A DNA stretch of 64,000 bases from Alphaproteobacteria bacterium (GTDB taxonomy: Bacteria > Pseudomonadota > Alphaproteobacteria > SP197), in the NCBI GenBank assembly GCA_965228895.1, contig OZ245842.1, forward strand, positions 4,608,001-4,672,000, read 5' to 3'. Numbering within the stretch: the first letter of the stretch is position 1; every line of letters starts with the position of its first letter. The position numbers and the translations under genes are program-made. Below, in pieces: positions 1 to 19,735 of the stretch. The notes below the pieces were generated by a model. It had not been told where the DNA came from. It did no database searches and saw nothing but the letters and a program-made list of their open reading frames with translations.

Positions 1-206
1 ATGTCCTCCGCCAGCGCCAGGGCCGGCAGGTCAAAGCCATCAATCGCCGAATAGGTGATCTGCGATGGTTCCCGGTATTCATAGACCTGATCGATGACAA
101 TCAAGACCGTTTCCGCCTTGGCGCGCGACCAGCCGGCCACCGCAAGCACGGTGACCACGGCGAACACGGTTCGCGCCAAGAAAAGGGGCCGATTCGATCG
201 TTTCAT
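1..206 (-). CDS. Exported hypothetical protein, N-terminal part (runs off window start)
   Basis: ATG at 206 (minus), open to window edge: MKRSNRPLFLARTVFAVVTVLAVAGWSRAKAETVLIV...; signal-peptide-like N-terminus. Not in the ORF track because it is truncated. Confidence 0.55.
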   Translation of the reverse strand, partial: MKRSNRPLFLARTVFAVVTVLAVAGWSRAKAETVLIVIDQVYEYREPSQITYSAIDGFDLPALALAED

Positions 207-298
207 GCGGCCATTCTAGCGGGAATCCGGCCCAATTTCGCCTGTCCGGCGGCGGTCTGGCGTCACACGCTCGTGAGACCGCCCAAAGCGGTGTTGTT

Positions 299-886
299 TT
301 AAGGTTGGTGGTGGTCGCGCCAGGCCGCGATCAGTGTCTCGCCCTCGGCAATCTCATCGTCAGACAGGGTGTCGAGGAAAGAGGCGAGATTGGCCGCCGC
401 GAAAGCGTCACCGCCATCCGCAGCCAGGCTGAGCCACTGATAAGCCTCGGCGCGGCGGGTATCGTCACCGCGCGCAAGCAGATAGCCAAGCAGCGACTGT
501 GCCGCCGTATCACCGGCTTCGGCGACCGGGAACAGACTGTTTTCCGCGCCCGCCACGTCGACCGGGCCGCCGCGGCCCTCGATCTGCATCAAGGCCAGGC
601 GATACCCCGCACGTCCATGACCTTGTTCCGCCGCCTTCGCGTACCACGACCGCGCCGCCACCAGATCGGCGGCATCGTGGACGCCGTGCTCCAGCGCGAA
701 GGCGAGCAGGTATTGTGCTTCGGCATCGCCGGCTTCTGCCTGCTCGCCGTACCACGACAGAGCATCGCTGTAGCCGGCAGCCGCGTCAGAGGAAACGGCA
801 AGTCCGGCAATCAGCACGAAGGCGCAGCCAAGTGCTGCACCGATGTTGCCGATACGGCGCAGCGCGTTGCCACATAGAACCATCAT
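299..886 (-). CDS. Sel1-like repeat (SLR/TPR) exported protein
   Basis: Signal peptide followed by Sel1 repeats (AEAGDAEAQYLLA, WYAKAAEQGHGRAGYRLA, AYQWLSLAADGG). Confidence 0.85.
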   Translation of the reverse strand: MMVLCGNALRRIGNIGAALGCAFVLIAGLAVSSDAAAGYSDALSWYGEQAEAGDAEAQYLLAFALEHGVHDAADLVAARSWYAKAAEQGHGRAGYRLALMQIEGRGGPVDVAGAENSLFPVAEAGDTAAQSLLGYLLARGDDTRRAEAYQWLSLAADGGDAFAAANLASFLDTLSDDEIAEGETLIAAWRDHHQP

Positions 887-948
887 GGCGATGGCATGTC
901 CCCCAGTGTCCCCCCTGTCGGCCGGAGATTAGCCGCGACACACGCCCG

Positions 949-1914
949 TCACAATGGCCCGTCGCGTTCCTTTGTAAGGTGATGCAGCAACCCGCCTACC
1001 GCCTCATCGAAGGCGAGATCACCGGAAAGCACACGGTCGCACAATGCCCCGAGCGCATCGGGTCCCAGGTCATGGGCCCGGTCGCGGGCCAGATCGGCGA
1101 CCGCTGCGATCAGTAGCTGACCCATGCGCCGGCGCGCACCGTCGACGCCCGATGCCGCCTTGCGCGCACCGAGTTCCATCATTGTGTCGACGAGCGCTTC
1201 AACACCATCGCCCCTGACCGCGATCGTCTTGAGCACGACCGGCCGGCGGTCTTCCGGTAAATAGGATGACGCGCCCTTCAGTGCGGCTTCGGTCTGCACG
1301 GCCTGGGGCAAATCCGACTTGTTGACGACCAGAACGTCGGCAATTTCCAGGATGCCGGCTTTGGCGGCCTGGACCTCGTCGCCGGCGCCCGGCGCCCAGA
1401 CGACGACGCGAATATCGGCCAAGCCGGCGATCTCGATCTCCGACTGGCCGACGCCGACGGTTTCGACCAGGACAACGTCCTTGCCGCCGGCGTCCATCAC
1501 GTCGACCAGCCGCGCGGTGTTGCGCGACAGGCCGCCCAGGTGGCCACGCGAAGCGACCGAGCGCACGAAGACATCGGGGTCGCCGGCATGGTCAAGCATA
1601 CGCACACGGTCACCGAGCAGCGCGCCGCCGGTAAAGGGGCTGGACGGATCGACCGCCAGGACGCCGACCGTCCGGGATCGCGCGCGAAGATCGCGAATGA
1701 CCGCCGACACCAAGGTCGACTTGCCCGCACCCGGCGCACCGGTGATCCCGACCACAAGCGCACGGCCGGTTCTGCCATGGGCGGCACGCAGCACGACTGC
1801 TGCTTCGTCGGTATCGTTCTCCACCGCGGTGATCGCGCGCGCAAGCGCGGCACGGTCGCCTTCGAACAGGCGATCGATCCAGGTTGCGGTCGAAGTTGGG
1901 GAAGACGCAGACAT
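949..1914 (-). CDS. meaB: MeaB/ArgK-type G3E GTPase (cobalamin-dependent mutase chaperone)
   Basis: GITGAPGAGKST, VLAVDPSSPFTGGALLGDRVRM, VETVGVGQSE, VVNKSD motifs. Confidence 0.9.
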   Translation of the reverse strand: MSASSPTSTATWIDRLFEGDRAALARAITAVENDTDEAAVVLRAAHGRTGRALVVGITGAPGAGKSTLVSAVIRDLRARSRTVGVLAVDPSSPFTGGALLGDRVRMLDHAGDPDVFVRSVASRGHLGGLSRNTARLVDVMDAGGKDVVLVETVGVGQSEIEIAGLADIRVVVWAPGAGDEVQAAKAGILEIADVLVVNKSDLPQAVQTEAALKGASSYLPEDRRPVVLKTIAVRGDGVEALVDTMMELGARKAASGVDGARRRMGQLLIAAVADLARDRAHDLGPDALGALCDRVLSGDLAFDEAVGGLLHHLTKERDGPL

Positions 1915-2002
1915 TCTGGCGGCGCAGTCTACGCGTGTGGCCGATCAGTCGGAAGCCCGACGCCACATTGCGTCTCCGCGCGTTTTGACGCAGGTTTTCG
2001 GG

Positions 2003-3070
2003 ATGACCACGAACAACAAACTGGAATTGATGTCGGTGACCGGCGCCGACGGCGGCTGCACGCCGGTCGACGGTGTTTCTCTGCATGTTGAACCGGGCGA
2101 GACCCTTGCCATCCTTGGTCCCGAGCGCGCCGGCAAGTCGTCACTTATTCGTTTGATCGCCGGGTTCGGCGAGGTCGTGGGCGGTCACATTTCGTTCAAC
2201 GGCCATAACCTCGCCAAGGTTGCGCCGCGTCGACGACCGTTCGCCCTGCTCGGCGAACGCGATGCCCTGTTTCCCCATCTGACGGTGCGCAAGAACATCG
2301 CCTATGGCTTGAAGGCACACCGCCTTGACCCGCGCGACATCGAGGAGCGCATTCACGAGAACCTCGCCTACTTCGAGATCACCGCGCTGCTGAACGACTA
2401 TCCAGATGGCTTGAGCCGTTCGGATCGCCACAAGGTGGCGCTGGCTCGCGCGCTTGCGACCCGTCCGCTGGTGGTGCTGATGGATCAGCCATTTGACGCG
2501 CTCGATCCCATGCTGGCCGGCCAATTGATGTTCACCCTGCGCGACCTGCAGCGTCACGCCGGTTTCAGCGTGGTCATGGCGACCCGAGACAGCGAGGCGG
2601 CACTTGCCGTTTCCGACCGAATCGCCGTGATGAGCGAAGGTCGGCTGTTGCAAGTGGGAACGCCCGATGCACTTTTCGATCGGCCGGAACACGCCCTGGT
2701 CGCGACACTGACCGGCCCGGTCAACCTGATTTACGGGACAGCCCACGGCAACGCGATCGAGGTTTCCGGATTGGGAGCGTTGCCCGCAAACGCGAGCGCG
2801 CTGCCTGCCGGCACGCCGGCGGTCTTGTGCCTGCGGCCGGATTTGCTCGAGCTTTCGCTCTATCCGCCCGAAAGCGCGGAGATCGCCGTGCAGTTCGAGG
2901 TGCGCGACGTCACCTATGCCGGCGGCGGTTTGCGCGTGCGACTGGAGAACGGTTCCCATCGGCTGGCGGCGCGCCTGGACGGCCGGCGCCTGACATCTGG
3001 CGACTTGCCAGCGGGACGCCAGATATGGTGTACCTGGGACCGCGATGCCGCCCACGTCCTGGGCGCGTGA
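2003..3070 (+). CDS. PotA/MalK-like ABC ATP-binding protein with C-terminal TOBE region; catalytic motifs degenerate
   Basis: Start set at ATG 2003 (MTTNNK). Walker A GPERAGKS and ALFPHLTVRKNIAYGL retained. Signature reads LSRSD, Walker B VLMDQP, switch ATRD. Confidence 0.85.
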   Translation: MTTNNKLELMSVTGADGGCTPVDGVSLHVEPGETLAILGPERAGKSSLIRLIAGFGEVVGGHISFNGHNLAKVAPRRRPFALLGERDALFPHLTVRKNIAYGLKAHRLDPRDIEERIHENLAYFEITALLNDYPDGLSRSDRHKVALARALATRPLVVLMDQPFDALDPMLAGQLMFTLRDLQRHAGFSVVMATRDSEAALAVSDRIAVMSEGRLLQVGTPDALFDRPEHALVATLTGPVNLIYGTAHGNAIEVSGLGALPANASALPAGTPAVLCLRPDLLELSLYPPESAEIAVQFEVRDVTYAGGGLRVRLENGSHRLAARLDGRRLTSGDLPAGRQIWCTWDRDAAHVLGA

Positions 3071-3106
3071 AACAACAATCGATACCTAAGGATTCAGGGG
3101 GACTTC

Positions 3107-4399
3107 ATGAGTGACGGCAAGACCATCGTGTTCTTTCCAGAGGCCGCGTTCGGCCCGGCGCTAAACTCCGTCGGCATCGCGCAGGTCTGCCGTGACATGG
3201 GGCACAACTGCGTGTTCGTGGCCGATGTCGGCTTCGAAGGCGTGTTCGCCGGATACGGTTTCGAGGAACGGCTGATCCACATGTCCGAGCCGATGGATGC
3301 AGAGGCCTCGGCGCAGTATTGGGTCGACTTCATCAACGGCCATTTGCCGAACTTCCGCACCCCGCCGATCGACCAGATCTCGACCTACATCAAGGGCTGC
3401 TGGGAAGCGATCCTGGAGACCTCGGTGTGGGCGGAAAAGGAACTGCCTGAGACGCTTGCCGACATCAAACCCGACCTGATCTGCGTCGACAACGTGATCT
3501 TGTTCCCGGCGACCAAACAATATGGTGTGCCTTGGGTACGCATCATCTCGTGCAGCGAAAACGAGATAGAGGATCCGAATATTCCGCCTCATCTCTCCGG
3601 CTGTTTTGCCGATGATAAGGCCTGCTTCACCGCCTTCCGCGAAAAGTTCGAGCGCGAGATCAAACCGATCCACGACAATTTCAATGCCTTCCTGGCCGAA
3701 TGTGGTGAAGACCCGTATCCCCTCGGCCAGTTCTTCGAGGCCTCGCCATGGCTCAACCTGCTGCATTATCCCAAGCCGCTCGCCTATGAGCGCCTTCACC
3801 CGCTGGATCCCGAGAAGTTCCAGTACCTCGAAGGCTGCATTCGCGCCGAAGAGAGTTATGAAGTCCCGACGTTCAAGGAGAACAACGACAAGCCGCTGAT
3901 CTATGTCAGCTTCGGCAGCTTGGGGTCATCCGACACCGACCTGATGAAACGCCTGATCGCGACGCTCGGCAAGCTGCCCTATCGCGTGCTGGTGAATGTC
4001 GGCGACTACGGCGATGCCTATGAATCGGTCCCCGACAACTGTCATGTCGAGAGCTGGTACCCCCAACCATCGGTCATCGCCCAGGTCGATGCGGTCATCC
4101 ACCACGGTGGCAACAACAGCTTCAACGAGTGCCTGTTCTTCGGCAAACCAGCGCTGATCATGCCCTATTGCTGGGACGGCCACGACAATGCGTCGCGTAT
4201 TCAGGAGACCGGCTACGGCCTGAAGCTGGAGCGCTATACCTGGTCAGACAGCGATATCGAAAATGCCATGAACACCATGATGACGGACGGAGCCATGGCA
4301 ACGCGTCTCGCTGACCTGTCGCGCCACATGCAGGCCCAGGATGGGCGCCGCAAGGGTGCGGAGGCGCTGGATGCTCTTCTAAAGGCCACCGCATCGTGA
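3107..4399 (+). CDS. GT1/MGT-family (UDP-glycosyltransferase-like) glycosyltransferase
   Basis: IYVSFGS and PSPG-like box WYPQPSVIAQVDAVIHHGGNNSFNECLFFGKPALIMPYCWDG; purine-rich RBS upstream. Confidence 0.85.
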   Translation: MSDGKTIVFFPEAAFGPALNSVGIAQVCRDMGHNCVFVADVGFEGVFAGYGFEERLIHMSEPMDAEASAQYWVDFINGHLPNFRTPPIDQISTYIKGCWEAILETSVWAEKELPETLADIKPDLICVDNVILFPATKQYGVPWVRIISCSENEIEDPNIPPHLSGCFADDKACFTAFREKFEREIKPIHDNFNAFLAECGEDPYPLGQFFEASPWLNLLHYPKPLAYERLHPLDPEKFQYLEGCIRAEESYEVPTFKENNDKPLIYVSFGSLGSSDTDLMKRLIATLGKLPYRVLVNVGDYGDAYESVPDNCHVESWYPQPSVIAQVDAVIHHGGNNSFNECLFFGKPALIMPYCWDGHDNASRIQETGYGLKLERYTWSDSDIENAMNTMMTDGAMATRLADLSRHMQAQDGRRKGAEALDALLKATAS

Positions 4400-4758
4400 G
4401 CGACACGACGGTTCCACGACTGCCCGACGTCGCCAACCTGAACGAGAGCGACCTCGCCGACTGGGGTGATGTTCCCGAGCCGCTCAGCGAGGCCGTGTCG
4501 CACACGTCCGGCAAGGTCATCGTGGGCGGCGGCGGAACCTTTCCGGAGGCTGGCTATTGGCGCTGCACGCCGGGAAGCTGGCGCTGCGAGGTCGAGCGCG
4601 ACGAGTTCTGCCATTTTTTGGAAGGCACGTGTCTCTACACCCATGACAACGGCGAGGAGATCGCGATCAAGGGCGGCGATACCGCCTGGTTTCCGGCCGG
4701 CTGGCGTGGGCGTTGCGATGTCCGGGACACCGTCGCCAAGGTCTACCTGATCCGATAA
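4396..4758 (+). CDS. Cupin_3 (DUF861/EutQ-like) protein
   Basis: GYWRCTPGSW..DEFCHFLEG..IKGGDTAWFPAGWRGRCDV; GTGA overlap with the GT stop codon. Confidence 0.85.
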   Translation: MSDTTVPRLPDVANLNESDLADWGDVPEPLSEAVSHTSGKVIVGGGGTFPEAGYWRCTPGSWRCEVERDEFCHFLEGTCLYTHDNGEEIAIKGGDTAWFPAGWRGRCDVRDTVAKVYLIR

Positions 4759-4776
4759 CGGTTTGTTCTTGGGGGA

Positions 4777-4950
4777 CAGGGTTGCCGGTCCCTGTTGCGC
4801 GGCCTAGATCGGTGGAGAGCATCTGCCCTGGGGGGACCCCGACCTTAGCGGCGCGCAACGGGACCGGCTACTTCCCTGAGGAAGCCCGAAGACCGGGCTA
4901 TGCCGGTATCCGGTTGAGCCTCGGCATCGCCGGCCATGAACGGTGATGCC
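4777..4950. other. Structured intergenic region (long imperfect hairpin plus two smaller hairpins); possible sRNA or repeat
   Basis: gccggtccc-t-gttgcgcg (4784-4801) pairs with cgcgcaacgggaccggc (4852-4868); further stems gcccg/cgggc and ggcatcgccg/cggtgatgcc. Confidence 0.4.
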
Positions 4951-5122
4951 AGAGCTGTGAGGAGTCATATAAATCGGATATCGGCTAGAGTTTGTGACCG
5001 GCATCACTCGTCATGGCTTCGTTCGCCGGATTGGTAATGGTAATCACTGTCTTGCCGGCCCGCGGCCTTCCGAAGCGCCGCTGGTCGTGATGTCGCAGCA
5101 TCGCAGTCGCCAAGGGATCGCA

Positions 5123-7186
5123 ATGAAACATCTGCTCGCTACCGTCAGCCTCGCCCTCACCGCAACCGTCTCGCTCGGCGCGTTTGCCGGCATGGACGAA
5201 GCCAAGAACGCCTACGACACCGGCCAGTACGAATCGGCCTATCAGGAATTCGAAATCCTCTATGGCGAGGGCGACGCCGAGGCAGCGTACTACCTGGGCC
5301 GTATGCATCACTTTGGCGAGGGCGTATCGCAGAACTATTCGCAGGCGCTGAACTGGTACCGCACGGCGGCCGATGGCGGCCATGCGGAGGCCTACTTCGT
5401 GATGGGCCAGATGTACGAAAAGGGCCAGGGCTCGCCGCAGGATTTCACCCGCGCCTTTGAGGCCTATCGGGCCGCATCCGATCTCGACCACATGGCCTCG
5501 CGCAAGCGCCTGGCGATGATGCACGCGGAAGGCCTGGGCACGCCGGTCGACTATGGCGAAGCCGCCCGGTTGATGCAGACCGTCGCCGACACCGGCGATG
5601 CGGAGGCCCAGCAGTTGCTCGCCTATCTGATGGAGAGCGGCCAGGTGCCCAAGGATGTGGCTTCCGGCTCCAGCGAGCCCACGGTTGCGGCGATGCCGGC
5701 GGAGCCGCTCACGCCCGCCGAACAAATGCGCGCGCGGTTTGAACGCGCGCTGCATAGCGTCGACATGGGCCAGCAGCCTGACGCCGAAGCCGACCTGCTC
5801 TGGGAGCTCGATGTCACCGAAGCCGACGACGGCACCATTACCCTGGATCTTCTTGGCCTTAACCTGGTCGGCGAGGACGCTGCCTGGGAGATCGGCGATG
5901 CGCGCACCGTCATGACGCCGGTCGGCGATGCCATCTACGACACCACTGTCGAACTGCCCCAGGAGACCGTGTTCCTGGATGAAAAAGACCAGGCCATCGG
6001 CGGCACGACGTTCGCCAGCCAAAGTTTTGAAGGCATCTACCACCTGGATTTCGGTCAGTTCGTCACGCTGGACGCGGCCTATGACGATATCCGGGTCAAG
6101 GCCGAACCCGCCGGCGAGCCGGCGTTCGAAGTCTCGATTGCGCGTGTGGCCGCCCTTATGAACTTGGAGGAGACGGCGCCGGGCAAATGGTCGGGACCCT
6201 ATACCGGCGGTTTGGAATCGCTTGCCATCGACATCGCGGGCGAAGGCGGCATGACCGCTGACCGCATCTGGTTCGATACGGATACGCAGGGCGCCGATCT
6301 CGCGTTCTTCTCCACCCTTCAGCAGAACATGGAGCGCATGCAGTACGAGATGGCGGAGGATCCCGCCAGCGTCGACCAGAAGGCGATAGGCCAGATGATG
6401 CAGCAAGCCTTCGCCGAGTTCCGCACCCTGCTGGTTGAGCACCAGCCGTTGATCCAAAGCGTCGACTTCGCGCTGGGCGCCAACGGCACCCGCGTGGTCG
6501 ACGGTGACGGCGCGGTTCAGTTCGCCGCCGACGAGATCGGCTACGGCATTGGATTGACCAATCTGGACCAGCCGCTATCAACCATGTCGATCAACTACGG
6601 TCACACCGGCCTTGAAGCCGCCACGGACGAGGAGGTGCCGGACGCCTATCTGCCGACTGAGATGGAAGTCGCGTTTGAGTTCGACCGCCTGCCGCTCGAA
6701 CAAGCCATGACCATGATGGTGGAGATGATGGAAGGCGCGGCCGCCGACCCGGCGAGCTTTGAGGAGCAGATGGAAATGTCGCTGATGTTCCTGGGACTGG
6801 GCATGCAGCAGCAGTTCGTCAGCTCCGGCAGCGTGTTCCGCATCAAGGCGTTCAACTACGACAGCGAGGCGCTCGACGCCACCATGGCCGGCGAGGTCAC
6901 GGCGTCGGCCGAGTCACCCTATGGCGCCGTCGGCGCGATCGATCTGCAGATCGTCGGTTTGGACCAGGCCGTACAGGACCTGTCGGCCAACGCGGGCAAG
7001 GATCCCGATGCCCAAGACATGGTGGCGACCTTGACCATGCTGCAGTCCATGGGCGCGCGTACCGAAGCCGAAGGCCGTTCGATCCACGACTACGCCTTCA
7101 ACTTCACGCCCGACGGCCAGATCCTGCTGAACGGCAACGATATGGGGCCGATGATTGGCGGCATGATGGGCGAAGGTCAGCCCTGA
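5123..7186 (+). CDS. Exported Sel1-repeat protein fused to a long acidic beta-rich C-terminal region (YdgA/DUF945/DUF2125-like ending)
   Basis: Start ATG 5123 (MKHLLATVSLAL, signal peptide); Sel1 repeats (GEGVSQNYSQALNWYRTAADGGHAEA); C-terminus YAFNFTPDGQILLNG. Confidence 0.75.
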   Translation: MKHLLATVSLALTATVSLGAFAGMDEAKNAYDTGQYESAYQEFEILYGEGDAEAAYYLGRMHHFGEGVSQNYSQALNWYRTAADGGHAEAYFVMGQMYEKGQGSPQDFTRAFEAYRAASDLDHMASRKRLAMMHAEGLGTPVDYGEAARLMQTVADTGDAEAQQLLAYLMESGQVPKDVASGSSEPTVAAMPAEPLTPAEQMRARFERALHSVDMGQQPDAEADLLWELDVTEADDGTITLDLLGLNLVGEDAAWEIGDARTVMTPVGDAIYDTTVELPQETVFLDEKDQAIGGTTFASQSFEGIYHLDFGQFVTLDAAYDDIRVKAEPAGEPAFEVSIARVAALMNLEETAPGKWSGPYTGGLESLAIDIAGEGGMTADRIWFDTDTQGADLAFFSTLQQNMERMQYEMAEDPASVDQKAIGQMMQQAFAEFRTLLVEHQPLIQSVDFALGANGTRVVDGDGAVQFAADEIGYGIGLTNLDQPLSTMSINYGHTGLEAATDEEVPDAYLPTEMEVAFEFDRLPLEQAMTMMVEMMEGAAADPASFEEQMEMSLMFLGLGMQQQFVSSGSVFRIKAFNYDSEALDATMAGEVTASAESPYGAVGAIDLQIVGLDQAVQDLSANAGKDPDAQDMVATLTMLQSMGARTEAEGRSIHDYAFNFTPDGQILLNGNDMGPMIGGMMGEGQP

Positions 7187-8056
7187 TCACGGTCCGCTCT
7201 GGCGGCGAAGCATGGACTCGCGGCGGAAAACATAGATGCCGGCGCAGGCGATGACGGCCGCGCCGGTCAGCGTCAGGGCGTCCGGGAAGTTGCCGAAGAA
7301 GATCAGCCCGAAGATCACCGCCAGCACCATGTGCAGGAACGTGAAAGGCGCCAGCAGCGATACCGGCGCGTATCGATAGGCCAGGATCAAGCTGAAATGG
7401 CCGCCGGTGCCAAAGACACCGGCGGCGGCAAGAAGTAGCCAGTCCAGCGGCGCCGGCGTTTGCCAAACGAACGGCACGGCAATGCTGAGCGCCACGGCAC
7501 CGACGATGGCGGTATAGAAGAGCGTCGTATCCGAACCGTCATGGCGCGCCAGGATACGCGTCAGAATGGCGAAGATGGCCATGCATATCGCTGTGCCGAT
7601 GGGAAGAAAGTAAGCCCAGTGGCGAAACTCAAGGCCCGGGCGCATGATGATGAGCGCGCCGATTAACCCGATAACAATCGCCGCCCAGCGGCGTGGCCCG
7701 ACCTTTTCGCCGAGCAACGGTATCGCCAGCGCCGTCGTCAGGAGCGGCGCGATGAAGCCGATCGCCACGGCATCGGCCAGCGGGATGTATTTGACGGTCA
7801 GAAAGAACAGATAGGTGGTCACGGCCAGCAGCAACGACCTTAGGAGCTGCATGCCCGGCCGTGTCGTGCGCGCGGCCTGCATCATCCGCCGGGGCGGCAG
7901 GATCAGCGGCAGGATTGCCAGGGCGAAGATATAGCGGCCCCAGGCCACCTCGATCGGCGAATAGATCTGCGATAGGTGTTTCGCGACCGTGTCGAGCGAC
8001 ACGAAGAAGATCAGCGACAGCAGGAAATAGCCGATACCGCGAGGGATGTTGTCCAA
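7187..8056 (-). CDS. DMT/EamA family transporter
   Basis: About 10 TM segments; PLLGEKVGPRRWAAIVIGLIGALIIMRPG and AYRYAPVSLLAPF motifs. Confidence 0.9.
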   Translation of the reverse strand: MDNIPRGIGYFLLSLIFFVSLDTVAKHLSQIYSPIEVAWGRYIFALAILPLILPPRRMMQAARTTRPGMQLLRSLLLAVTTYLFFLTVKYIPLADAVAIGFIAPLLTTALAIPLLGEKVGPRRWAAIVIGLIGALIIMRPGLEFRHWAYFLPIGTAICMAIFAILTRILARHDGSDTTLFYTAIVGAVALSIAVPFVWQTPAPLDWLLLAAAGVFGTGGHFSLILAYRYAPVSLLAPFTFLHMVLAVIFGLIFFGNFPDALTLTGAAVIACAGIYVFRRESMLRRQSGP

Positions 8057-8189
8057 GGATGATCTGCCCGCGCCGGGATGGCGCTGGGGCCCTGCTTAGC
8101 ACGCAAAACAACCGCACGACATACTTGGCAATCGACGGTCAAACCAAGCTAGAGTGCGCGCCCGCAAGGTCTTTGGGGGAGTTTCAGCG

Positions 8190-9818
8190 GTGGACAACGA
8201 CATCGACGTGCTGGTCGTGGGCGCGGGGCCGGTTGGTCTCTTCATGACATGCGAGCTGATTCGCCATGGCGCGCGGGTGCGCCTTGTCGAAATCGCCGAT
8301 GCCCCGACGACACTGTCCAAGGCAATCGGCGTTCATGCCCGGACCATGGAGGTTTTCCAGGACATCGGTGTTGTCCAGGCCGCGCTTGCCAAAGGCAAGG
8401 TGATGCACGGCGCCAACATTTTTTCCGACGGCAAACGCATCGCCCACCTGTCGTTGGACGAGCTCGACAGCCCCTATCCCTTCCTTCTCGACCTGGAACA
8501 GAGCCGGACCGAAGAGATTCTGATCGACCACTTGGCCGGCCTCGGCGGCGGTGCCGAACGCGGCACCACCATGACCGGTTTCGAACAGGACGATACCGGC
8601 GTTACCGCGACCCTGCGCCGGGGCGACACCGAGGAGACAATAAGCGCCTCCTGGCTGGTCGGCTGCGACGGCGCGCACAGCACGACACGCCACACCCTGG
8701 GCCTGGAGTTCCAGGGCGATGCCCTTCCCCAGAACATGCTTCTGGCCGATGTCCGGCTGGACTGGGGTCAAGTCGATGACGAACTGACGGCAAGCCTGAA
8801 TGATCAGGGCCTATTGTTCGTGGCGCCCTTGGTCGGCGGACGCGCACGCGTCATCGCCGACGTACCCGATGACGTGAAAGAGGTCACGCTCGCCGACGTA
8901 CAACAGGTCATCGACGAACGAGGACCTGGTGGCGGCAAGGTGAGCGACCCGGTCTGGCTGACGACGTTTCGTATCAGCGAGCGCCAGGTCGAGCGCTACC
9001 GTGTCGGCCGCGTGTTCCTGGCCGGCGACGCGGCCCACGTGCACAGCCCTGCCGGCGGTCAGGGCATGAACACCGGCATTCAGGACGCCTATAACCTGGC
9101 GTGGAAACTAGGCTTCGCCATCCGGGGCCAAGCGAGCGAGGCGCTGATCGACAGCTACAATGGCGAACGCCACCCGGTCGGTCATGCGGTGCTGCGCGGC
9201 ACAAGCCTTGCGACCCGCGCCATCACGCTACGCAATCCGCTGGCGCGCCATCTGCGCGACAAGCTCGCCGGCTTCCTGACCAACATCGAGGTGGTTCAAG
9301 AACGCATGCGTACCAATGCCTCGCAGCTGGCCGTGGGCTATCGCGACAGCACGATCGTTGGCGAACACCGCGGACCCGGCCCGGGCGCTCGCGCCTTCAG
9401 CCACGGACCCTTACCGGGTCAGCGAGCGCCGGACGGGGACCTGATGGATCCGCAGGACGGCAGTATGGTCACCCTGTTCGATCTGCTTCGCGGGCCCGCA
9501 CACACCATGGTGTTTTTTGCCGGCACGATCTTGGACGACGGCGATGAAGGGGCGCGCGGCGCGGTCTTGGCGGCGTTGCCTGTTGAACTAGTTGGCGAGC
9601 TGCGCCTGATCTTGATCACGACCGGCGATGAACCTCTGCCGACGACCTGGGACGGCATCCGGGTCGTCGATACCGATGCCGCGTTGCACCACCGTTACGG
9701 CGCGGACAGCGCCTGCGTCTATCTGATCCGCCCCGACGGCTACATCGGCTATCGTGCACAGCCGATGGATGCTGCCTCGCTCCGCGCCTATTTCGATACG
9801 ATCACGGTGCAAGCCTGA
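8190..9818 (+). CDS. FAD-dependent monooxygenase (FAD_binding_3, PheA/TfdB/aromatic hydroxylase type)
   Basis: GAGPVG, LVGCDGAHS, RVFLAGDAAHVHSPAGGQGMNTGIQDAYNL, C-terminal LIRPDGYI; GTG start after GGGGAG. Confidence 0.9.
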   Translation: MDNDIDVLVVGAGPVGLFMTCELIRHGARVRLVEIADAPTTLSKAIGVHARTMEVFQDIGVVQAALAKGKVMHGANIFSDGKRIAHLSLDELDSPYPFLLDLEQSRTEEILIDHLAGLGGGAERGTTMTGFEQDDTGVTATLRRGDTEETISASWLVGCDGAHSTTRHTLGLEFQGDALPQNMLLADVRLDWGQVDDELTASLNDQGLLFVAPLVGGRARVIADVPDDVKEVTLADVQQVIDERGPGGGKVSDPVWLTTFRISERQVERYRVGRVFLAGDAAHVHSPAGGQGMNTGIQDAYNLAWKLGFAIRGQASEALIDSYNGERHPVGHAVLRGTSLATRAITLRNPLARHLRDKLAGFLTNIEVVQERMRTNASQLAVGYRDSTIVGEHRGPGPGARAFSHGPLPGQRAPDGDLMDPQDGSMVTLFDLLRGPAHTMVFFAGTILDDGDEGARGAVLAALPVELVGELRLILITTGDEPLPTTWDGIRVVDTDAALHHRYGADSACVYLIRPDGYIGYRAQPMDAASLRAYFDTITVQA

Positions 9819-9820
9819 AC

Positions 9821-10327
9821 ATGCCAACAACGGCCCCGGCCCTTGTCGCCCACGACAACCTCGACATTCGGGTGAAACCCGAGTGGATCGATTTCAACGG
9901 GCACATGAATATCGCCTGTTACGTCACCGCGTTTGACCTGGCGACCGACAACCTGTTCCTGCTCGTCACACCACAGGTCTGGCGGGATGGTCATTTCACG
10001 GAAGGTTTCTTCATCGTCGAAATGCATGTGACCTACGAGCGCGAACTCTACGAAGATGATCCGCTGAGATTTGATAGCCAAATGCTGGGCGTCGACGACA
10101 AACGCCTGCACTACCTGCACCGCATGTACCATGCCGAGAAGGGATATCTGGCCGCGACCAACGAGATCATGTTCTTGTCGGTCGACACCGAGACGCGCAA
10201 GGTCGCGCCCATGCGCGAGGACATTCGCGACGCCTTTGCCAAGGTGATGGAGGAGCACGCCGGTCTGCCGCGGCCGCCGCAAGCCGGCCGCGTCATGTCG
10301 GTCAAGGCGCGAAAGCCCGGCCGATGA
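9821..10327 (+). CDS. Hotdog-fold thioesterase (4HBT/CdhB-like)
   Basis: VKPEWIDFNGHMNIACY motif; 2 bp after the monooxygenase stop. Confidence 0.85.
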   Translation: MPTTAPALVAHDNLDIRVKPEWIDFNGHMNIACYVTAFDLATDNLFLLVTPQVWRDGHFTEGFFIVEMHVTYERELYEDDPLRFDSQMLGVDDKRLHYLHRMYHAEKGYLAATNEIMFLSVDTETRKVAPMREDIRDAFAKVMEEHAGLPRPPQAGRVMSVKARKPGR

Positions 10328-11538
10328 GCGAGGGCCGCTTCGACATTGCGATCGAGCGCGAGCCCGAAGGGCCGAGTCCCATGTCGAAGGGCGACCGCTA
10401 CCGCAGTTTGGCGGCGGTGATCGCCAGTGCCTTTGCCGCATCGCTGACGTTTTCGATTTGCATGCCGCTCTTGGCGCTGATCCTTGAGCGGCGGGGCACA
10501 GACACCGTCCTTATCGGGCTCAACACGGCATCAGCATCGGCGGGCCTGTTGATCTTCACCTTGGCGGCGCCGCTTATCGTCAACCGCTACGGCACGATGC
10601 GCACGCTCTATCTGGGCTTCGTCTTGATGATCTTCTCGATCGCCCTGTTGCCCGTGTTCGACAATGTGTGGGCGTGGTTTCCGCTGCGCTTCATCATGGG
10701 CATCGGCATCGCCATTCACTGGGTCACCAGCGAAACCTGGATCAACACCATCGTCGAAGACCGTATTCGCGGCCGGGTCATGGGGATCTACGTCACCGCG
10801 TTGTCGGGCGGCTACCTCGCCGGACTCCCGGTGCTCTACTTTGTCGGCTCTGAAGGTTACCTGCCGTTCTTTATCATCTGCGCCACCATGGCGGTCGCCG
10901 TCTTTCCCTTGGTCTTCGCGCACAACCTGGCGCCGGGCATCAAAACGACCGAAGGATTCGGCGTGTTGAGCGCCATCCGCCGCGCGCCCGCCACCATGAG
11001 CGCGGCGTTGACCGATGGTTTTGTCTTGGGCGGACTGTTCGCGTTTTTCCTGATTTACGTGCAGCGTTTGGGTTTCGACGAACAGTCGGCGATTGTCATG
11101 CTGATCGTCATGTCGCTCGGCAACGTCGTGATGCAGTACCCAATCGGATTCCTGGTCGACCTCGTCAACCGTCGTCTGCTGCTGATCATCTTTGCGATTC
11201 TGGTCGCGCTGGGCACCATTGCGCTGCCCTTTGTCATCGATCACGAGATCTTGCGATGGGTCCTTTTGTTCGCCTGGGGCGGTGTCATGGGCGGCATCTA
11301 CACCTGCGGGTTGGCGCTTGTCGGTCAACGTTTCAAGAAAGACGAACTGGCCGGCGCCAACGCGACGTTCATCTTCACCTATGAGCTGGGAACGCTGGCG
11401 GGTCCTATTGTCGGCGGCCTTGCCATCAGTTTGTGGAATCCGAATGGTTTGCTCGCCGTGACGGTGAGTGCCGGGGTCCTGTTCGCGCTGTTTACAACCG
11501 CCCGTCATCTGACGGCGAGAGGTAAGGCGTTGGAATAG
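10324..11538 (+). CDS. MFS transporter (YcaD-like)
   Basis: About 12 TM segments; ETWIN..RGRVMGIY, QYPIGFLVDLVNRR; ATGA overlap with the thioesterase. Confidence 0.88.
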   Translation: MSEGRFDIAIEREPEGPSPMSKGDRYRSLAAVIASAFAASLTFSICMPLLALILERRGTDTVLIGLNTASASAGLLIFTLAAPLIVNRYGTMRTLYLGFVLMIFSIALLPVFDNVWAWFPLRFIMGIGIAIHWVTSETWINTIVEDRIRGRVMGIYVTALSGGYLAGLPVLYFVGSEGYLPFFIICATMAVAVFPLVFAHNLAPGIKTTEGFGVLSAIRRAPATMSAALTDGFVLGGLFAFFLIYVQRLGFDEQSAIVMLIVMSLGNVVMQYPIGFLVDLVNRRLLLIIFAILVALGTIALPFVIDHEILRWVLLFAWGGVMGGIYTCGLALVGQRFKKDELAGANATFIFTYELGTLAGPIVGGLAISLWNPNGLLAVTVSAGVLFALFTTARHLTARGKALE

Positions 11539-11671
11539 CGGAAGAAAATTGGAAGGATTCAAAGCTTAGAAAGTGGTGGACCTCGCGCAAAAGGCACGCC
11601 TATGCTGGCGTGAAGCGGCTGAACAAGAAACAAGGAGCCGCGTGGTTTGGGGTGCAACTGGGGAGACAACA

Positions 11672-12691
11672 ATGACCTCATTGAAGATTCTGGGACTAGC
11701 AACCGCGGCCGTTATGGCAGCGAGCCAGGCATTTGCCGGCGCGACCGTCGACCAAATCAAATCGCAAGATGTCGTGCGCTGCGGCGTCAGCACGGGCCTT
11801 GCCGGTTTCTCGATCGCCGACAGCCAAGGCAACTGGACCGGCCTTGATGCCGATTTCTGCCGCGTTGTCGCGGCCGCCACTCTTGGCGACGCGACGAAGG
11901 TCGAATTTGTGCCGCTTTCCGCGCAACAGCGCTTCACCGCCCTGCAATCGGGCGAGGTCGATCTTCTGTCGCGTAACACGACGTGGACCTTGACCCGCGA
12001 TACGACGCTGGGCCTCGATTTCGTCGGCGTCACCTTCTATGACGGCCAAGGCTTCATGGTACCGGCCGACCTGGGTGTCTCCTCGGCGATGGAGTTGGAT
12101 GGCGCCGCCGTCTGCGTGCAGACCGGCACGACAACCGAGAAGAACCTGACCGACTTCTTCCGCGCGACCGGCATGTCGTTCGAGCCGGTGGTGTTCGAGG
12201 GTCTTGAAGAATCCAAGACCGCGTTCTTCGAAGGCCGCTGCGATGCCTATACGACGGACGCGTCGGGCCTGGCCTCGATCCGCGCCACCGATGCGCCGAA
12301 CCCGGATGACTATGTCATTCTGCCGGAGATCATCTCCAAGGAGCCCTTGGGTCCGGCCGTGCGTAACGACGACAGCGAATGGTTCGACATCGTCAGGTGG
12401 TCGGTCTTCGCGACCCTGCAGGCCGAAGAATTGGGCATCAATTCCGGCAACATCGACGACATGATGAACAGCGAAGACCCCAACGTGCAGCGCGTGACCG
12501 GCGCTGCCGCGGGCATGGGCGAAGCGCTGGGTCTTGACGAGGCCTGGGCCTATAACATCGTTACTCAGGTCGGTAACTACGGCGAGATCTTCGAAGCCAA
12601 TGTCGGCGCCGAAACGCCGCTTGGCTTCCAGCGCGGTATCAACGCGTTGTGGAAGGATGGCGGCCTGATGTACGCGCCGCCGCTGCGCTAA
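11672..12691 (+). CDS. aapJ: General L-amino acid ABC transporter substrate-binding protein
   Basis: RFTALQSGEVDLLSRNTTWT, ISKEPLGP, QVGNYGEIF, GGLMYAPPLR; start ATG 11672 after GGGAG. Confidence 0.93.
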   Translation: MTSLKILGLATAAVMAASQAFAGATVDQIKSQDVVRCGVSTGLAGFSIADSQGNWTGLDADFCRVVAAATLGDATKVEFVPLSAQQRFTALQSGEVDLLSRNTTWTLTRDTTLGLDFVGVTFYDGQGFMVPADLGVSSAMELDGAAVCVQTGTTTEKNLTDFFRATGMSFEPVVFEGLEESKTAFFEGRCDAYTTDASGLASIRATDAPNPDDYVILPEIISKEPLGPAVRNDDSEWFDIVRWSVFATLQAEELGINSGNIDDMMNSEDPNVQRVTGAAAGMGEALGLDEAWAYNIVTQVGNYGEIFEANVGAETPLGFQRGINALWKDGGLMYAPPLR

Positions 12692-12706
12692 CCGAATAAA
12701 GCCTAG

Positions 12707-12736
12707 CCGCCGCCCTGCCGTAACGCAGGGCGGCGG
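12707..12736 (+). terminator. Intercistronic hairpin after aapJ (mRNA stabiliser or partial terminator)
   Basis: Perfect 12-bp stem ccgccgccctgc/gcagggcggcgg, 6-nt loop, no U-tract. Confidence 0.6.
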
Positions 12737-12751
12737 TGACGCTTTAGCGCC

Positions 12752-13946
12752 ATGTCTAGCTATTCGGGCGATCCCGGGGACGTCAAACCGTCGCGTCCTG
12801 CCTTCTGGAACGACCCCGTCATCCGCGGGATCTTCTGGCAAATCGTCGTGGTCGGCGGCGTTGTGCTGTTGGCCGCGTTCCTAGTCTCCAACACGCTCTC
12901 CAATCTGGCGCGCCAAAACATCGCCAGCGGCTTCGGCTTCTTTAACGCTGAGTCAGGGTTTGCCATCGGCGAAGCGATCGTTCCCTTTGCGCCGACCGAT
13001 ACCTACCTGAGAGCCCTCATTGTCGGCCTGTTGAACACGATCAAGGTCGCCGTCGTCGGCGTCTTTTTTGCGACGATCATCGGCACGATCGTCGGGGTCA
13101 TGCGGCTGTCGCATAACTGGCTGATTGCCAAAATCGCCTCGGTCTATGTCGAAGTTCTGCGCAACATCCCGCTGCTGCTTCAGCTGTTCTTCTGGTACTC
13201 GCTGATCGTCTCGACCTTGCCGCGGGCCAAGGATGCACTGGGACCGTTCCTGGGGTTCCATCTGTCCAACCGCGGGCTGAACATACCGGTGCCCGACGAC
13301 TGGGCCTATCTCGGACCGATAGTCGGCATCCTGTTGGCCGCCGTGGTCACGTGGATCCTGCTGAAACGCAGCAAACGTATCCACGACGCAACCGGCGAGA
13401 CCAAACCGGTGCTGTGGCCGTCCGTCGGCATCTTCATCATGTTCATCTTCCTGGGCTGGGCCTCGACCGGATTCCCGACCTCGATCGATGCGCCGTCGGT
13501 CGCTACAGGGCTTCTCATTCCAGGGCGGCGTCGACGTTTCGTCGGAGTTTCTTGCCCTTTGGCTTGGTCTGACGCTCTATACCGCCTCGTTCATCGCCGA
13601 GATCGTCAGAAGCGGCATTCTTGCGGTCAACAAGGGCCAATGGGAAGCGGCCGGTGCGTTGGGGCTAAGGCGCGGCCAGATCTTGCGGTTCATCGCCCTG
13701 CCCCAGGCCATGCGCGTCATCATCCCGCCGATGACCAGCCAGTATCTCAATCTCACCAAGAACAGCTCTCTGGCGGTCGCCATCGGCTATCCCGACATCG
13801 TGTCGGTCGCCGGCACGACCATCAACCAGACCGGTCAGGCGATCGAGGGAATCGCCGTGATCATGGCGGTTTACCTGACCTTGAGCCTGTCGATCTCGCT
13901 GTTCATGAACTGGTACAACAAGCGCATTGCGCTGGTGGAGCGCTGA
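12752..13946 (+). pseudogene. aapQ: Amino acid ABC permease AapQ/BztB, frameshifted
   Basis: 5' part in the frame of 12752 (LIVGLLNTIKV, YVEVLRNIPLLLQ); 3' part in another frame (LYTASFIAEIVRSGI..GQWEAA..KNSSLA). A tandem GTCG duplication at 13495-13502 causes the shift. Confidence 0.85.
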
Positions 13947-13947
13947 C

Positions 13948-15048
13948 GTGTCAGATTCGGCCTTAGAAAGTCCCGAAATGGTACGCCCGCCGCGGCAGTC
14001 GGTCGGCGCTGTCGGCTGGCTTCGGGCGCACCTGTTCAGCTCCTGGTTCAACACGATTTTGACCGGCATTGCCGTCTGGATCATCATCGAGACCATACCC
14101 GGCATCATCATGTGGGCCTTTGTCGATTCGGTCTGGGGTGATGCCTCGCCGGAGACCTGCAAGGCGGCGGATGGCGCCTGCTGGGCCTTCATCTACGAGA
14201 AGTACCGCTTCATCCTGTTCGGTGTTTACCCCTGGGAGGAGCACTACCGGCCGCTGCTGGCCATGATCATCTTCCTGACCCTGGTGCTGACCAGCTGTTT
14301 CCGGCGCGCCTGGGGCCGGCCGCTGATTGCCGGCTGGATCATCGGCCTGGCCGCGGTGGCGGTGCTGATGTGGGGCGGTGTCCTGGGCCTGACCTATGTC
14401 GATCAGAGCCAGTGGGGCGGCCTTCCGTTGACCCTGTTCCTGGCTACCTTCGGCATCGCCGGCGCGTTTCCGATCTCGATCCTGCTGGCGCTGGGCCGAC
14501 GTTCGAAAATGCCCGCTATTAAGGCGCTATGTATCGGATACATTGAGCTTATTCGCGGCGTCCCCTTGATCAGCATCCTGTTCATGGCATCCGTCATGTT
14601 CCCGCTGTTCCTGCCACAGGGCATCAGCATCGATAAGCTGCTGCGTGCGCAGGTCGGTATCATCCTGTTCTCCGCGGCCTATCTGGCGGAAGTGATCCGC
14701 GGCGGTCTGCAGGCCATCCCCAAGGGCCAGTACGAGGCTGCCGATGCTCTGGGGCTCACCTATTGGCAGTCGATGCGCAAGATCATCCTGCCGCAGGCGC
14801 TTCGCATCACCATTCCGCCGATGGTCAACACCTTCATCGGCGGCTTCAAGGACACCTCGCTGGTCGTCATCATCGGCCTCTTTGACCTCTTGATGACCAC
14901 CCGTGTCGCCTTCCAGGACATCGAATGGCGGCCGTTTTTTGTCGAGGGCTACGTGTTCTGCGCCCTCATCTATTTCTGTTTCTGTTTCTTCATGTCCAAA
15001 TACAGCCAGTGGCTGGAGCGCGATCTGACGCGCGGCCACTCGCACTGA
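13948..15048 (+). CDS. aapM: Amino acid ABC permease AapM/BztC
   Basis: WGGLPLTL, IELIRGVPLI, AYLAEVIRGGLQAIPKGQYEAA, FKDTSLV. Confidence 0.92.
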   Translation: MSDSALESPEMVRPPRQSVGAVGWLRAHLFSSWFNTILTGIAVWIIIETIPGIIMWAFVDSVWGDASPETCKAADGACWAFIYEKYRFILFGVYPWEEHYRPLLAMIIFLTLVLTSCFRRAWGRPLIAGWIIGLAAVAVLMWGGVLGLTYVDQSQWGGLPLTLFLATFGIAGAFPISILLALGRRSKMPAIKALCIGYIELIRGVPLISILFMASVMFPLFLPQGISIDKLLRAQVGIILFSAAYLAEVIRGGLQAIPKGQYEAADALGLTYWQSMRKIILPQALRITIPPMVNTFIGGFKDTSLVVIIGLFDLLMTTRVAFQDIEWRPFFVEGYVFCALIYFCFCFFMSKYSQWLERDLTRGHSH

Positions 15049-15061
15049 CGGAGAGGTTGTT

Positions 15062-15826
15062 ATGGCGGTTGCGGAAGAACGTCCCAATTTGGGTCACGCT
15101 GTCGAATTGCGGCACGTCCATAAATGGTACGGCGAGTTCCACGTGCTCAAGGATATCAACCTGGAGGTGCGCCAGGGCGAGCGGGTCGTTGTCTGTGGAC
15201 CCTCGGGTTCCGGCAAATCGACCATGATTCGCTGCATCAACCGGCTGGAGGAGCACCAGCGGGGCCATATTCTGGTCGAAGGCACCGAATTGACCAACGA
15301 TTTGAAGAATATCGACACAATCCGGCGCGAAGTCGGCATGGTTTTCCAGCATTTCAACCTGTTTCCGCACCTGACCGTGCTGGAAAACCTGACCTTGGGG
15401 CCCACCTGGGTGCGCAAGGTTGCCAAGAAAGAGGCCGATGACACGGCGATGATGTACCTGGAACGGGTCAAAATCCCCGAACAGGCCCACAAGTACCCCG
15501 GCCAGCTCTCCGGCGGCCAGCAACAGCGCGTCGCCATCGCCCGCTCGCTGTGCATGAAACCCCAGATCATGCTGTTCGACGAGCCGACATCGGCCCTTGA
15601 CCCCGAAATGATCAAGGAAGTGCTGGATGTCATGATCGAACTGGCCGAAGAGGGCATGACCATGATCTGCGTGACCCATGAAATGGGTTTTGCCCGCACC
15701 GTCGGCGACACCATGGTCTTTATGGACGAGGGCGAAATCGTCGAAATGGCGCCGCCCAGCGAGTTCTTCGCCAACCCGAAGAACGAGCGGACCCGGCTGT
15801 TCCTGAGCCAGATTCTGTCCCACTGA
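15062..15826 (+). CDS. aapP: Amino acid ABC ATP-binding protein AapP/BztD
   Basis: GPSGSGKST, LSGGQQQRV, MLFDEPTSALDPEM, VTHEMGF all intact. Confidence 0.95.
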   Translation: MAVAEERPNLGHAVELRHVHKWYGEFHVLKDINLEVRQGERVVVCGPSGSGKSTMIRCINRLEEHQRGHILVEGTELTNDLKNIDTIRREVGMVFQHFNLFPHLTVLENLTLGPTWVRKVAKKEADDTAMMYLERVKIPEQAHKYPGQLSGGQQQRVAIARSLCMKPQIMLFDEPTSALDPEMIKEVLDVMIELAEEGMTMICVTHEMGFARTVGDTMVFMDEGEIVEMAPPSEFFANPKNERTRLFLSQILSH

Positions 15827-18786: not shown

Positions 18787-18817
18787 GCCAGCCCCGCAAC
18801 CACGCGGCCGGCTGAGC

Positions 18818-19735
18818 GTGTACGCCTATTCCATCCGCCGCCTGATCGGCGCCATACCCACTCTGCTGGCGGTGATTGTGATCGCGTTTGTCATGATCCG
18901 CCTGGCGCCCGGCGGCCCGTTTGATAGCGAACGCAGTGTGCCGCCCGAGATCGCCGCCAACCTGGAAGCCGCCTACCGGTTGGATGCGCCGCTCGGCGAA
19001 CAGTTCCTGAGCTATCTGGGCGATCTTCTGCGCGGCGACTTCGGTCCGTCGTTCCGCTACAAGGACTTTACCGTCACCGAACTCCTGTGGTCCGCCTTCC
19101 CGGTCTCCGCGCAACTCGGTCTCGCCGCCATCATTCTGGCGGTCATCGCCGGCACCGCCGCCGGTGCCTATGCGGCGATGCGCCGCAACTCCATGCTCGA
19201 CGCCGGTGTCATGACGCTCGCCATGACTGGTATCGCGCTACCCAACTTTGTTGTCGCGCCGCTGCTGACCCTGGTGCTCGGTGTTTACTTGAGCTGGCTG
19301 CCGGTCGGCGGCTGGGGCGGTTTCTCCCATGCCCTGCTGCCGATCATCGCGCTGGCGCTGCCTCAGATTGCCTACGTCGCTCGGTTGACGCGCGGCAGCA
19401 TGCTTGAGGTGCTACGCGCCGACTTCATCCGCACCGCGCGCGCCAAGGGCATGAGCGATGGCCGCCTGGTCGCCCACCATGCGCTGAAAGCCGCTGCACT
19501 GCCGGTCGTCTCCTACCTCGGCCCGGCGACGGCGGCGATTATCACCGGTTCCGTCGTGATTGAGCAGATCTTCGGCATTCCAGGCTTGGGCCGTTACTTC
19601 GTACAGGGCGCGTTGAACCGCGATTACACCCTCGTCATGGGTGTGGTGATTTTCTATGCCGTCCTGATCGTGATCTTGAATCTGATCGTCGATCTCCTCT
19701 ACCCGCTGCTTGATCCCAGGGTGCGTTATGACTGA
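18818..19735 (+). CDS. oppB: Oligopeptide ABC permease
   Basis: LAPGGPFD, GDFGPSF, ARLTRGSMLEVL..FIRTARAKG, LDPRVRY. Confidence 0.93.
   Translation: MYAYSIRRLIGAIPTLLAVIVIAFVMIRLAPGGPFDSERSVPPEIAANLEAAYRLDAPLGEQFLSYLGDLLRGDFGPSFRYKDFTVTELLWSAFPVSAQLGLAAIILAVIAGTAAGAYAAMRRNSMLDAGVMTLAMTGIALPNFVVAPLLTLVLGVYLSWLPVGGWGGFSHALLPIIALALPQIAYVARLTRGSMLEVLRADFIRTARAKGMSDGRLVAHHALKAAALPVVSYLGPATAAIITGSVVIEQIFGIPGLGRYFVQGALNRDYTLVMGVVIFYAVLIVILNLIVDLLYPLLDPRVRYD

Follow-up and report, generated by a model that had tools for sequence, protein, structure and literature searches.

An importer-type ABC ATPase with degenerate ATP-site motifs, retained upstream of a GT1 glycosyltransferase gene in a small alphaproteobacterial clade

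Why would a bacterium keep an intact gene for an ATP-binding cassette (ABC) importer ATPase whose hydrolysis motifs have degenerated and which has no transporter genes beside it? This question is raised by a locus in a 64,000-nucleotide stretch of DNA from an Alphaproteobacteria bacterium (GenBank assembly GCA_965228895.1, contig OZ245842.1, positions 4,608,001 to 4,672,000), referred to as the window in the following, while the genome from which it stems is designated G000. The product of window positions 2003-3070, protein P0001, is here named pABC. The explanation that we favour, and consider reasonably probable, is that pABC represents the stranded ATPase of a former importer which has been kept as a non-catalytic protein of a unit with the downstream glycosyltransferase (GT) gene and, at some loci, a cupin gene, and which may act as a soluble adaptor or regulator. 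This degree of confidence applies to the statement as a whole and would be much lower for any specific partner.

The reading frame on the forward strand contains no internal stop codon and encodes 355 amino acids followed by a stop codon. Translation and Pfam searches agree with the initial annotation, which had described a full-length protein consisting of a nucleotide-binding domain (NBD) and a TOBE region: ABC_tran (PF00005) is matched at residues 23-164 with 81.6 bits (gathering score 25) and TOBE_2 (PF08402) at residues 275-353 with 34.2 bits (gathering score 21). The ATG at position 2003 was assigned as start codon because the N-terminus of P0001 aligns from residue 1 with those of the orthologs. 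The frame is already open from position 1319, which is due to the high G+C content only, and its 1319-2002 part overlaps meaB on the opposite strand. P0001 is clearly homologous to importer ATPases of solved structure such as CysA (1z47, E 1.8e-49) and PotA (8y5f, E 1.5e-41); its scores for the NCBIfam equivalogs, however, each reach only about half of the curated cut-off. This holds for potA (TIGR01187, 210.5 vs 355.6; NF006987, 195.1 vs 482) as well as for the best match, the 2-aminoethylphosphonate ATPase PhnT2 (TIGR03265, 228 vs 457.7). A search of the ESM Atlas returned generic ABC ATPase clusters only. Structural modeling by AlphaFold2 gave a mean predicted local distance difference test (pLDDT) score of 76 with values below 50 at residues 1-6, 8-18, 44-47 and 49-70, which include the end of Walker A, and site geometry was not taken from this model.

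The motif changes that had been reported initially, namely those of the Q-loop, LSRSD at the signature, the Gln in MDQP and the Arg in ATRD next to a preserved Walker A, are all present, and the replacement of the A-loop aromatic residue by Asp16 can be added. Thus, among the elements of a competent ABC ATPase, P0001 displays a canonical Walker A, while A-loop, Q-loop, signature, catalytic Glu and switch His are all altered. Of the 8000 candidates scored in a large protein search, 6220 are relatives at E <= 1e-10, and the odd motifs are shared only by the first thirteen of these (89-42% identity); the aligned sequences from P0014 downward are canonical. Similarly, in a library of representatives at 50% identity, the 22 listed matches whose motifs were examined are canonical apart from P0011 and the long-branch P0127. 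Scans of genomes and metagenomes identified further members of the clade at nine of ten genome loci, at locus L011 and at seven of 80 metagenome loci.

For comparison, 25 aligned rows of this clade, some of which represent one protein cut slightly differently (e.g. L003/P0009 and L007/P0012), were set against 54 canonical rows. The A-loop aromatic residue is absent from all clade rows and occurs as F or Y in 53 of the 54 canonical ones. The first Gly of the signature and the switch His are equally missing from the entire clade, the Q-loop Gln is found in a single row, the signature Ser in four and the second signature Gly in seven; each of these residues is present in 54/54 canonical rows. The same invariance applies to the catalytic Glu and the Walker A Lys, which the clade retains in 13/25 (replaced by Q in six, D in four and N in two) and 19/25 rows, respectively. 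The Walker B Asp is kept in 24/25. Since the same sites are degenerate throughout the clade while being near-invariant in the canonical relatives, the pattern is not a matter of chance, and the counts place the loss of four elements, the A-loop aromatic residue, the Q-loop Gln, the signature and the switch His, at the base of the clade. By contrast, the exchange of the catalytic E for Q is limited to the sub-branch of the window. Mutagenesis of MalK, HlyB and MJ0796 has established that an exchange of E to Q or loss of the switch His is each sufficient to abolish hydrolysis, and pABC is accordingly predicted from its motifs to be unable to hydrolyse ATP. The initial view of an ATP-binding but non-hydrolysing subunit does not extend to the clade: this copy keeps GxxxxGKS, but the A-loop aromatic residue is missing in 25/25 rows and the Walker A Lys lost in 6/25, so that binding of a nucleotide cannot be a requirement of the function conserved in the clade.

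The clade is monophyletic with full support in the SH-like approximate likelihood ratio test (SH-aLRT 100), and its stem of about 1.05 changes per site compares with a median of 0.27 for the end branches. All 25 rows, even those at only 42% identity, have an uninterrupted frame. Nei-Gojobori counts for three independent pairs gave a ratio of nonsynonymous to synonymous substitutions (dN/dS) for pABC of 0.094 between the window and L001 (dS 0.64), 0.178 between L002 and L003 (dS 0.43) and 0.122 between L004 and L006 (dS 0.87); the corresponding values are 0.091, 0.106 and 0.071 for the neighbouring gene meaB and 0.041, 0.098 and 0.031 for the GT gene. pABC is under purifying selection, at a dN/dS similar to that of meaB, and neither of the hallmarks of a pseudogene, a disrupted frame or neutral evolution, is observed. 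The designation as a natural pseudo-ATPase, as opposed to a broken gene, is upheld by this intact, selected frame together with catalytic sites that are degenerate across the clade. Values for the FAD-monooxygenase from L004/L006 (dN/dS >1) and L004/L005 were disregarded, as the segments compared there match poorly or are not orthologous.

Within the protein, the distribution of constraint has changed as well. From canonical relatives to the clade, mean column conservation falls from 0.99 to 0.69 in Walker A and from 0.88 to 0.57 in the H-loop, where, the canonical set being phylogenetically broader, only the pattern across regions and not the absolute values can be compared. Conversely, more than 30 positions reach a conservation of at least 90% in the clade yet are rare among canonical relatives, including N5, G14, G56, F65-N66-x-H68, D87 and T237/P239 and, in the C-terminal part of the TOBE domain, R324, D326, D334, L335, R339, C343 and T344. 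The latter part contains the clade-specific motif DLPxGRRVWCTW.

A GT1 gene is located directly downstream of pABC in 18/18 clade loci examined, i.e. the window, nine of nine genome loci, L011 and seven of seven metagenome loci; at L028, just a short GT match is seen at the contig end. The encoded GTs are 76-96% identical in the nine genome loci with pABC and 77-82% identical in the others (94% over an end piece of 69 amino acids). The cupin gene was seen behind the GT gene in five of the nine genome loci, in L011 and in L024, and L007 retains the order pABC-GT-cupin despite different flanks. The GT tree mirrors that of pABC, as would be expected if the two had a single origin and were then inherited together vertically. 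The GT, which had initially been mentioned only as a candidate for pull-down experiments, is thus the one invariant associate of pABC and, in addition, points to the origin of the gene. The GT family itself is far larger than the pABC clade, with 3012 relatives found, of which the 120 listed are 64-91% identical, and 14 of the 301 genomes sampled from the class contain it.

Of the 13 GT matches outside the window's own genome, 12 were fetched along with their surroundings (G159 was left out, its match lying 251 nt from a contig end). Besides these, the canonical ATPase P0014 and the GT P0317 come from contigs of equal length (20166), a hint that their genes may be neighbours. At L015, L020 and L021 the orthologous GT gene follows a complete importer operon composed of genes for a substrate-binding protein (SBP), PotB, PotC and a canonical ATPase with the motifs GPSGCGKT, MFQSYA, LSGGQ/E, LLLDEP and VTHDQ. 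At L011, a degenerate pABC is situated upstream of the GT gene. At L013 (9474-9890, G017), the same position holds what is left of a canonical ATPase gene, truncated to a 3' part that encodes the C-terminal half; this remnant still displays VTHDQ and shares 48% identity with the ATPase of L020 across 137 residues. The locus represents an independent transporter loss that ended in decay and not in retention. The remaining seven of the 12 loci have no adjacent ATPase. They include L012 of G210 (7830-8001), where only about 170 bp separate meaB and the GT gene; G210 is a congener of the pABC-bearing G033, and a pABC of the clade is absent from its entire, 100% complete genome. Since the GT of G210 nests inside the GT clade linked to pABC (SH-aLRT 100, sister to L007), the absence of pABC there is a secondary loss. 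The GT end branch measures 0.20 in G210 and 0.068 in its sister L007. The best ATPase tree places the degenerate clade on one side of a branch together with the canonical ATPases linked to the GT, and the synteny strongly indicates that the ancestor of pABC was the ATPase of a PotABCD-like importer whose operon was terminated by the GT gene.

The L020 region (3233-13901, G036) resembles a Puu-type amine-utilisation cluster, with genes for a PuuR-like helix-turn-helix-cupin regulator, a PotD-like SBP, PotB, PotC, the ATPase and the GT. It also harbors two cupin_3 genes, an aldehyde dehydrogenase gene and a gene for a DAO-family oxidase whose best matches are pipecolate oxidase and aminophosphonate oxidoreductase, both far below cut-off.

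A cognate transporter was found neither next to pABC nor elsewhere in G000. The neighbouring genes encode MeaB, the GT1 and a cupin_3 protein, in line with the initial statement that permease and binding protein are not adjacent, and PotB-, PotC- or SBP-like matches are lacking from the fetched flanks of ten genome loci and seven metagenome loci of the clade (17 in total). An ortholog of the ancestral transporter was not found in G000 either: the best PotC-like match is 44% and the best SBP match 30% identical, both being paralogs that belong to a system with its own ATPase, whereas true orthologs (L015 vs L020) are 66-68% identical. The initial assignment of pABC as partner or modulator of a polyamine-type transporter therefore loses its footing. 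G000 contains 18 open reading frames (ORFs) of the NBD+TOBE type, and all of these but P0001 have a BPD_transp_1 permease ORF at a distance of no more than about 1.3 kb; for P0001, the nearest is 9.7 kb away. Within the window, the closest ABC permease ORF starts at 13927 and is part of another system that has its own ATPase.

Based on these data, the ancestral state was most probably a PotABCD-like importer operon ending in GT1 and cupin genes, and the common ancestor of the small alphaproteobacterial clade would have lost the genes for permeases and binding protein. A-loop aromatic residue, Q-loop Gln, signature motif and switch His would then have degenerated a single time, and some branches would have lost the Lys of Walker A or the catalytic Glu as well, while purifying selection would have preserved pABC at the head of a pABC-GT(-cupin) unit. 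As far as can be judged from sequence, its present role is most likely that of a soluble adaptor or regulator that is independent of hydrolysis, and probably also of nucleotide, rather than that of a transport motor. In such a role, the conserved TOBE domain and the newly constrained surface residues would serve to bind either a ligand or some protein that belongs to the pathway of the GT. A function as TOBE-based sensor is possible, the TOBE C-terminus being the most distinctive conserved part of the clade.

Several observations weigh against this explanation. Helix 1 (LRLIAGFG) and DALFPH are still highly conserved in the clade (mean column conservation 0.95 and 0.80, respectively); in canonical importers these elements line the groove for the coupling helix of the permease, and their conservation would fit a membrane-bound role as well. 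Apart from L007, the visible flanks of the clade loci share a wider synteny block (Sel1-meaB-pABC-GT-...), and as the members are related to each other, part of the linkage to the GT is simple inheritance. G210 has lost pABC yet kept the GT, and at least seven of the sampled GT loci lack an adjacent ATPase; the GT therefore does not need pABC, and one lineage at least can do without pABC. Finally, the branch that groups the pABC clade with the canonical GT-linked ATPases has a support of only 67, and descent from the ATPase of the GT-linked importer hence rests mainly on synteny.

The conservation of helix 1 and DALFPH would likewise be expected if pABC were still a transporter subunit, docked as non-catalytic NBD on the permeases of another importer and acting either as heterodimer partner or as dominant modulator. 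We regard this alternative as unlikely, although less so than the two discussed below. As hosts, one of about 17 PotA-like systems of G000 might be envisaged or a locus at G000:C1:1196805-1200026 (L105/L111), which consists of an SBP gene (SBP_bac_6-like) and a convergent gene for a fused double permease of 580 amino acids. This is one of several permease sets in G000 that lack an ATPase: five related genomes contain the fused permease at 62-72% conservation, and no ABC ATPase was found within about 8 kb in the four of these that were checked or within 90 kb in G000. The locus has weak best NCBIfam matches to sulfate and PhnU2/PhnS types, which would suit the PhnT2 match of P0001, the sole orphan among the NBD+TOBE ORFs. 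That match, however, barely exceeds the one to potA (228 vs 210), and G210 keeps the SBP/permease locus (63-69% identity) with no pABC anywhere in the genome. pABC can thus not be the required subunit of this locus, which was the best candidate, and was rejected as obligatory ATPase of the ATPase-less permease sets in G000. A heterodimer would have both of its composite sites crippled, because the ATP-site motifs on both faces of the NBD are degenerate, and no NBD gene is adjacent to pABC. Moreover, the Q-loop Gln, which couples the NBD to the transmembrane domain, is gone in 24/25 clade rows, and the flanks of the 17 loci checked contain no permease.

If pABC is not part of a transporter, it could be a functionless relic, that is, a slowly decaying orphan whose frame is open by chance or because transcription and translation of the downstream GT gene pass through it. 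The loss in G210 without replacement would agree with this, as would the free variation of the replacement residues at catalytic positions and an evolutionary rate several times that of the GT, as is evident from much longer tree branches and from identities of 42-46% for pABC against 76-80% for the GT in the same genome pairs. We nevertheless regard a relic as improbable, given 25 intact rows, a dN/dS of 0.09-0.18 at dS values of 0.43-0.87, equal to that of meaB, and the set of clade-specific conserved positions; the ATPase of L013, which occupies the corresponding position and has been cut to its C-terminal half, shows how different a true relic looks. Least of all do we expect an active NTPase that relies on unconventional residues, for instance on Walker A and the Walker B Asp in combination with another base. 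This copy does keep GxxxxGKS and the Asp, the latter as nearly all clade rows, but six independent elements are non-canonical in it, and the Walker A Lys itself is missing from almost a quarter of the rows, which makes such an activity very improbable.

Compared to known systems, pABC shares the two-domain architecture, clear homology and, by synteny, a PotABCD-like ancestry with the ATPases of the PotA/CysA/MalK type (8y5f, 1z47 and 1q12, respectively); it differs from these in that all ATP-site motifs other than Walker A and the Asp of Walker B are altered and that permease and binding protein are missing. The regulatory domain of MalK binds MalT and EIIAGlc and provides a precedent for a TOBE-like C-terminus that makes regulatory contacts unrelated to hydrolysis, although MalK is an active transporter subunit. 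EryCII and DesVIII are P450-like pseudoenzyme partners of EryCIII-type GTs, and pABC is likewise a dead enzyme homolog encoded beside, and co-inherited with, a GT1, whose C-domain matches EryCIII-like_C. Their fold is unrelated, and the GT next to pABC scores far below the cut-off for activator-dependent family glycosyltransferases (TIGR04516, 51 bits vs 440) and occurs without pABC in most genomes. By analogy, it might be speculated that the dead NBD-TOBE protein has been recruited from the former importer ATPase of the pathway as a dedicated accessory subunit of the GT1, i.e. as activator, stabiliser or ligand-sensing regulator, but we consider this quite doubtful. If true, it would establish a new class of glycosyltransferase helper that is built from an ABC cassette and follows a logic like that of the P450-derived helpers of EryCIII-type GTs. 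The prediction of a complex between GT and pABC scored 0.00 (mark 0.32) and carries no weight either way. Among the 18 longer relatives of pABC, all of which are at most 41% identical, 11 are fused to a permease domain and the rest to other or repeated ATPase-type domains, while a GT domain is found in none.

Degenerate ATP sites are known from heterodimeric ABC exporters (reviewed in PMC7756269; for Rv1273c/72c see PMC12038006). As outlined in these sources, catalytic Glu, switch His and signature are naturally substituted there as well and kept under selection, but only one of the two composite sites is degenerate there, next to a canonical partner half in a working transporter, whereas in pABC both faces are degenerate and no transporter is present. 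Similarly, MsmX and MsiK, which are presented in PMC7658222 and PMC5730181 as multitask orphan NBDs, resemble pABC as importer NBDs with a C-terminal regulatory domain that are encoded apart from permease genes; they are, however, described as canonical active ATPases that energise several permease pairs, and pABC lacks the catalytic residues. At the level of literature listings and abstracts, no description of a stand-alone, fully degenerate importer NBD was found, which does not prove its absence. Degenerate ATP sites have been studied in detail in functional ABC exporters; an importer NBD that stands alone and remains under purifying selection although all of its catalytic elements have decayed is a different case, and pABC would be an ABC-derived pseudoenzyme caught after its machine had been dismantled. 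With the full operon, the truncated remnant, the clean deletion and the retained dead copy, this locus shows an unusual range of four outcomes at a single genomic position, which provides a natural experiment on the re-use of an ABC cassette and, at the same time, a handle on a large, highly conserved family of bacterial UGTs. The routine name for proteins of this kind is 'ABC transporter ATP-binding protein', and they are counted towards transport capacity, probably in error where pABC is concerned.

The positions of the features of the pABC region are compiled in the table. Genes for Sel1-repeat proteins at 299-886 (195 amino acids) and 4994-7186 (730 amino acids) bracket meaB, pABC, GT and cupin genes and are syntenic in most clade loci. 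A scan of 1700-5200 revealed no promoter-like site, and thus no consensus in 1915..2002, and two terminator-like sites that do not stand out above shuffled sequences. A search of positions 1-8000 against Rfam gave no match above threshold; one match inside the GT gene (24.5 vs 42.5 bits) was taken as chance.

Table. Features of the pABC region, in window coordinates.
Feature	Position	Strand	Remarks
meaB	949-1914	-	neighbour upstream of pABC
Intergenic region meaB/pABC	1915..2002		88 nt; divergent, presumed promoter region
pABC	2003..3070	+	intact 355-aa PotA/CysA-like NBD + TOBE_2 protein with degenerate ATP-site motifs
A-loop aromatic position	2048..2050	+	Asp16; from alignment, F of 2it1 aligns here
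Walker A	2117..2140	+	GPERAGKS, formally intact; aa 39-46
Q-loop region	2246..2263	+	LLGERD, Glu85 at Gln position; from alignment
Signature	2411..2425	+	LSRSD instead of LSGGQ; aa 137-141
Walker B	2471..2488	+	VVLMD (Asp161 kept), then Gln162 at catalytic Glu position; from alignment
Switch region	2579..2590	+	ATRD, Arg195 at His position; from alignment
TOBE_2 domain	2825..3061	+	aa 275-353; Pfam match
Clade-specific conserved C-terminal motif	3002-3037	+	DLPxGR(R/Q)(V/I)WCTW; aa 334-345, within TOBE_2
GT1 / UGT-type glycosyltransferase	3107..4399	+	starts 36 nt past the pABC stop; C-domain matches Pfam EryCIII-like_C
cupin_3 (EutQ-like) gene	4396..4758	+	overlaps GT stop; in only some clade loci

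The GT is exceptionally conserved, with 76-80% identity between genomes in which MeaB shows 57-69%, and the alignment of 28 rows contains many invariant positions, including the sugar-donor motif HHGGNNS...E...D(G)HDN. The GT and cupin genes (window 3107-4758) have a G+C content of about 0.58-0.59, which is below that of the flanks (0.64-0.67). The closest solved structures to the GT are those of the spider-mite enzymes UGT203A2 (7lvy, E 3e-52) and UGT202A2 (6pnt, E 1e-31). As summarised in PMC10731231, the UGTs of mites have been acquired from bacteria, and the GT family could be close to their donor lineage.

Further permease sets without ATPase in G000 include a PotB/PotC pair at G000:C1:970300-972155, a recent, 99.4% identical duplicate (1857 bp) of the permease genes of a complete system at about 1534631-1536486. 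Three others have no ABC ATPase ORF within 20-39 kb: SBP_bac_3 with two permeases (G000:C1:595481-597705), SBP_bac_5 with OppB/OppC-like permeases (G000:C1:2431691-2435328), and OpuAC with a 727-amino-acid fused permease beside an IS110 transposase gene (G000:C1:4247857-4251142). The window itself harbors two unrelated importers, one with an amino-acid-type permease and an ATPase at 13927-15826 and one with SBP_bac_5 and OppB/OppC-type permeases at 17191-20600.

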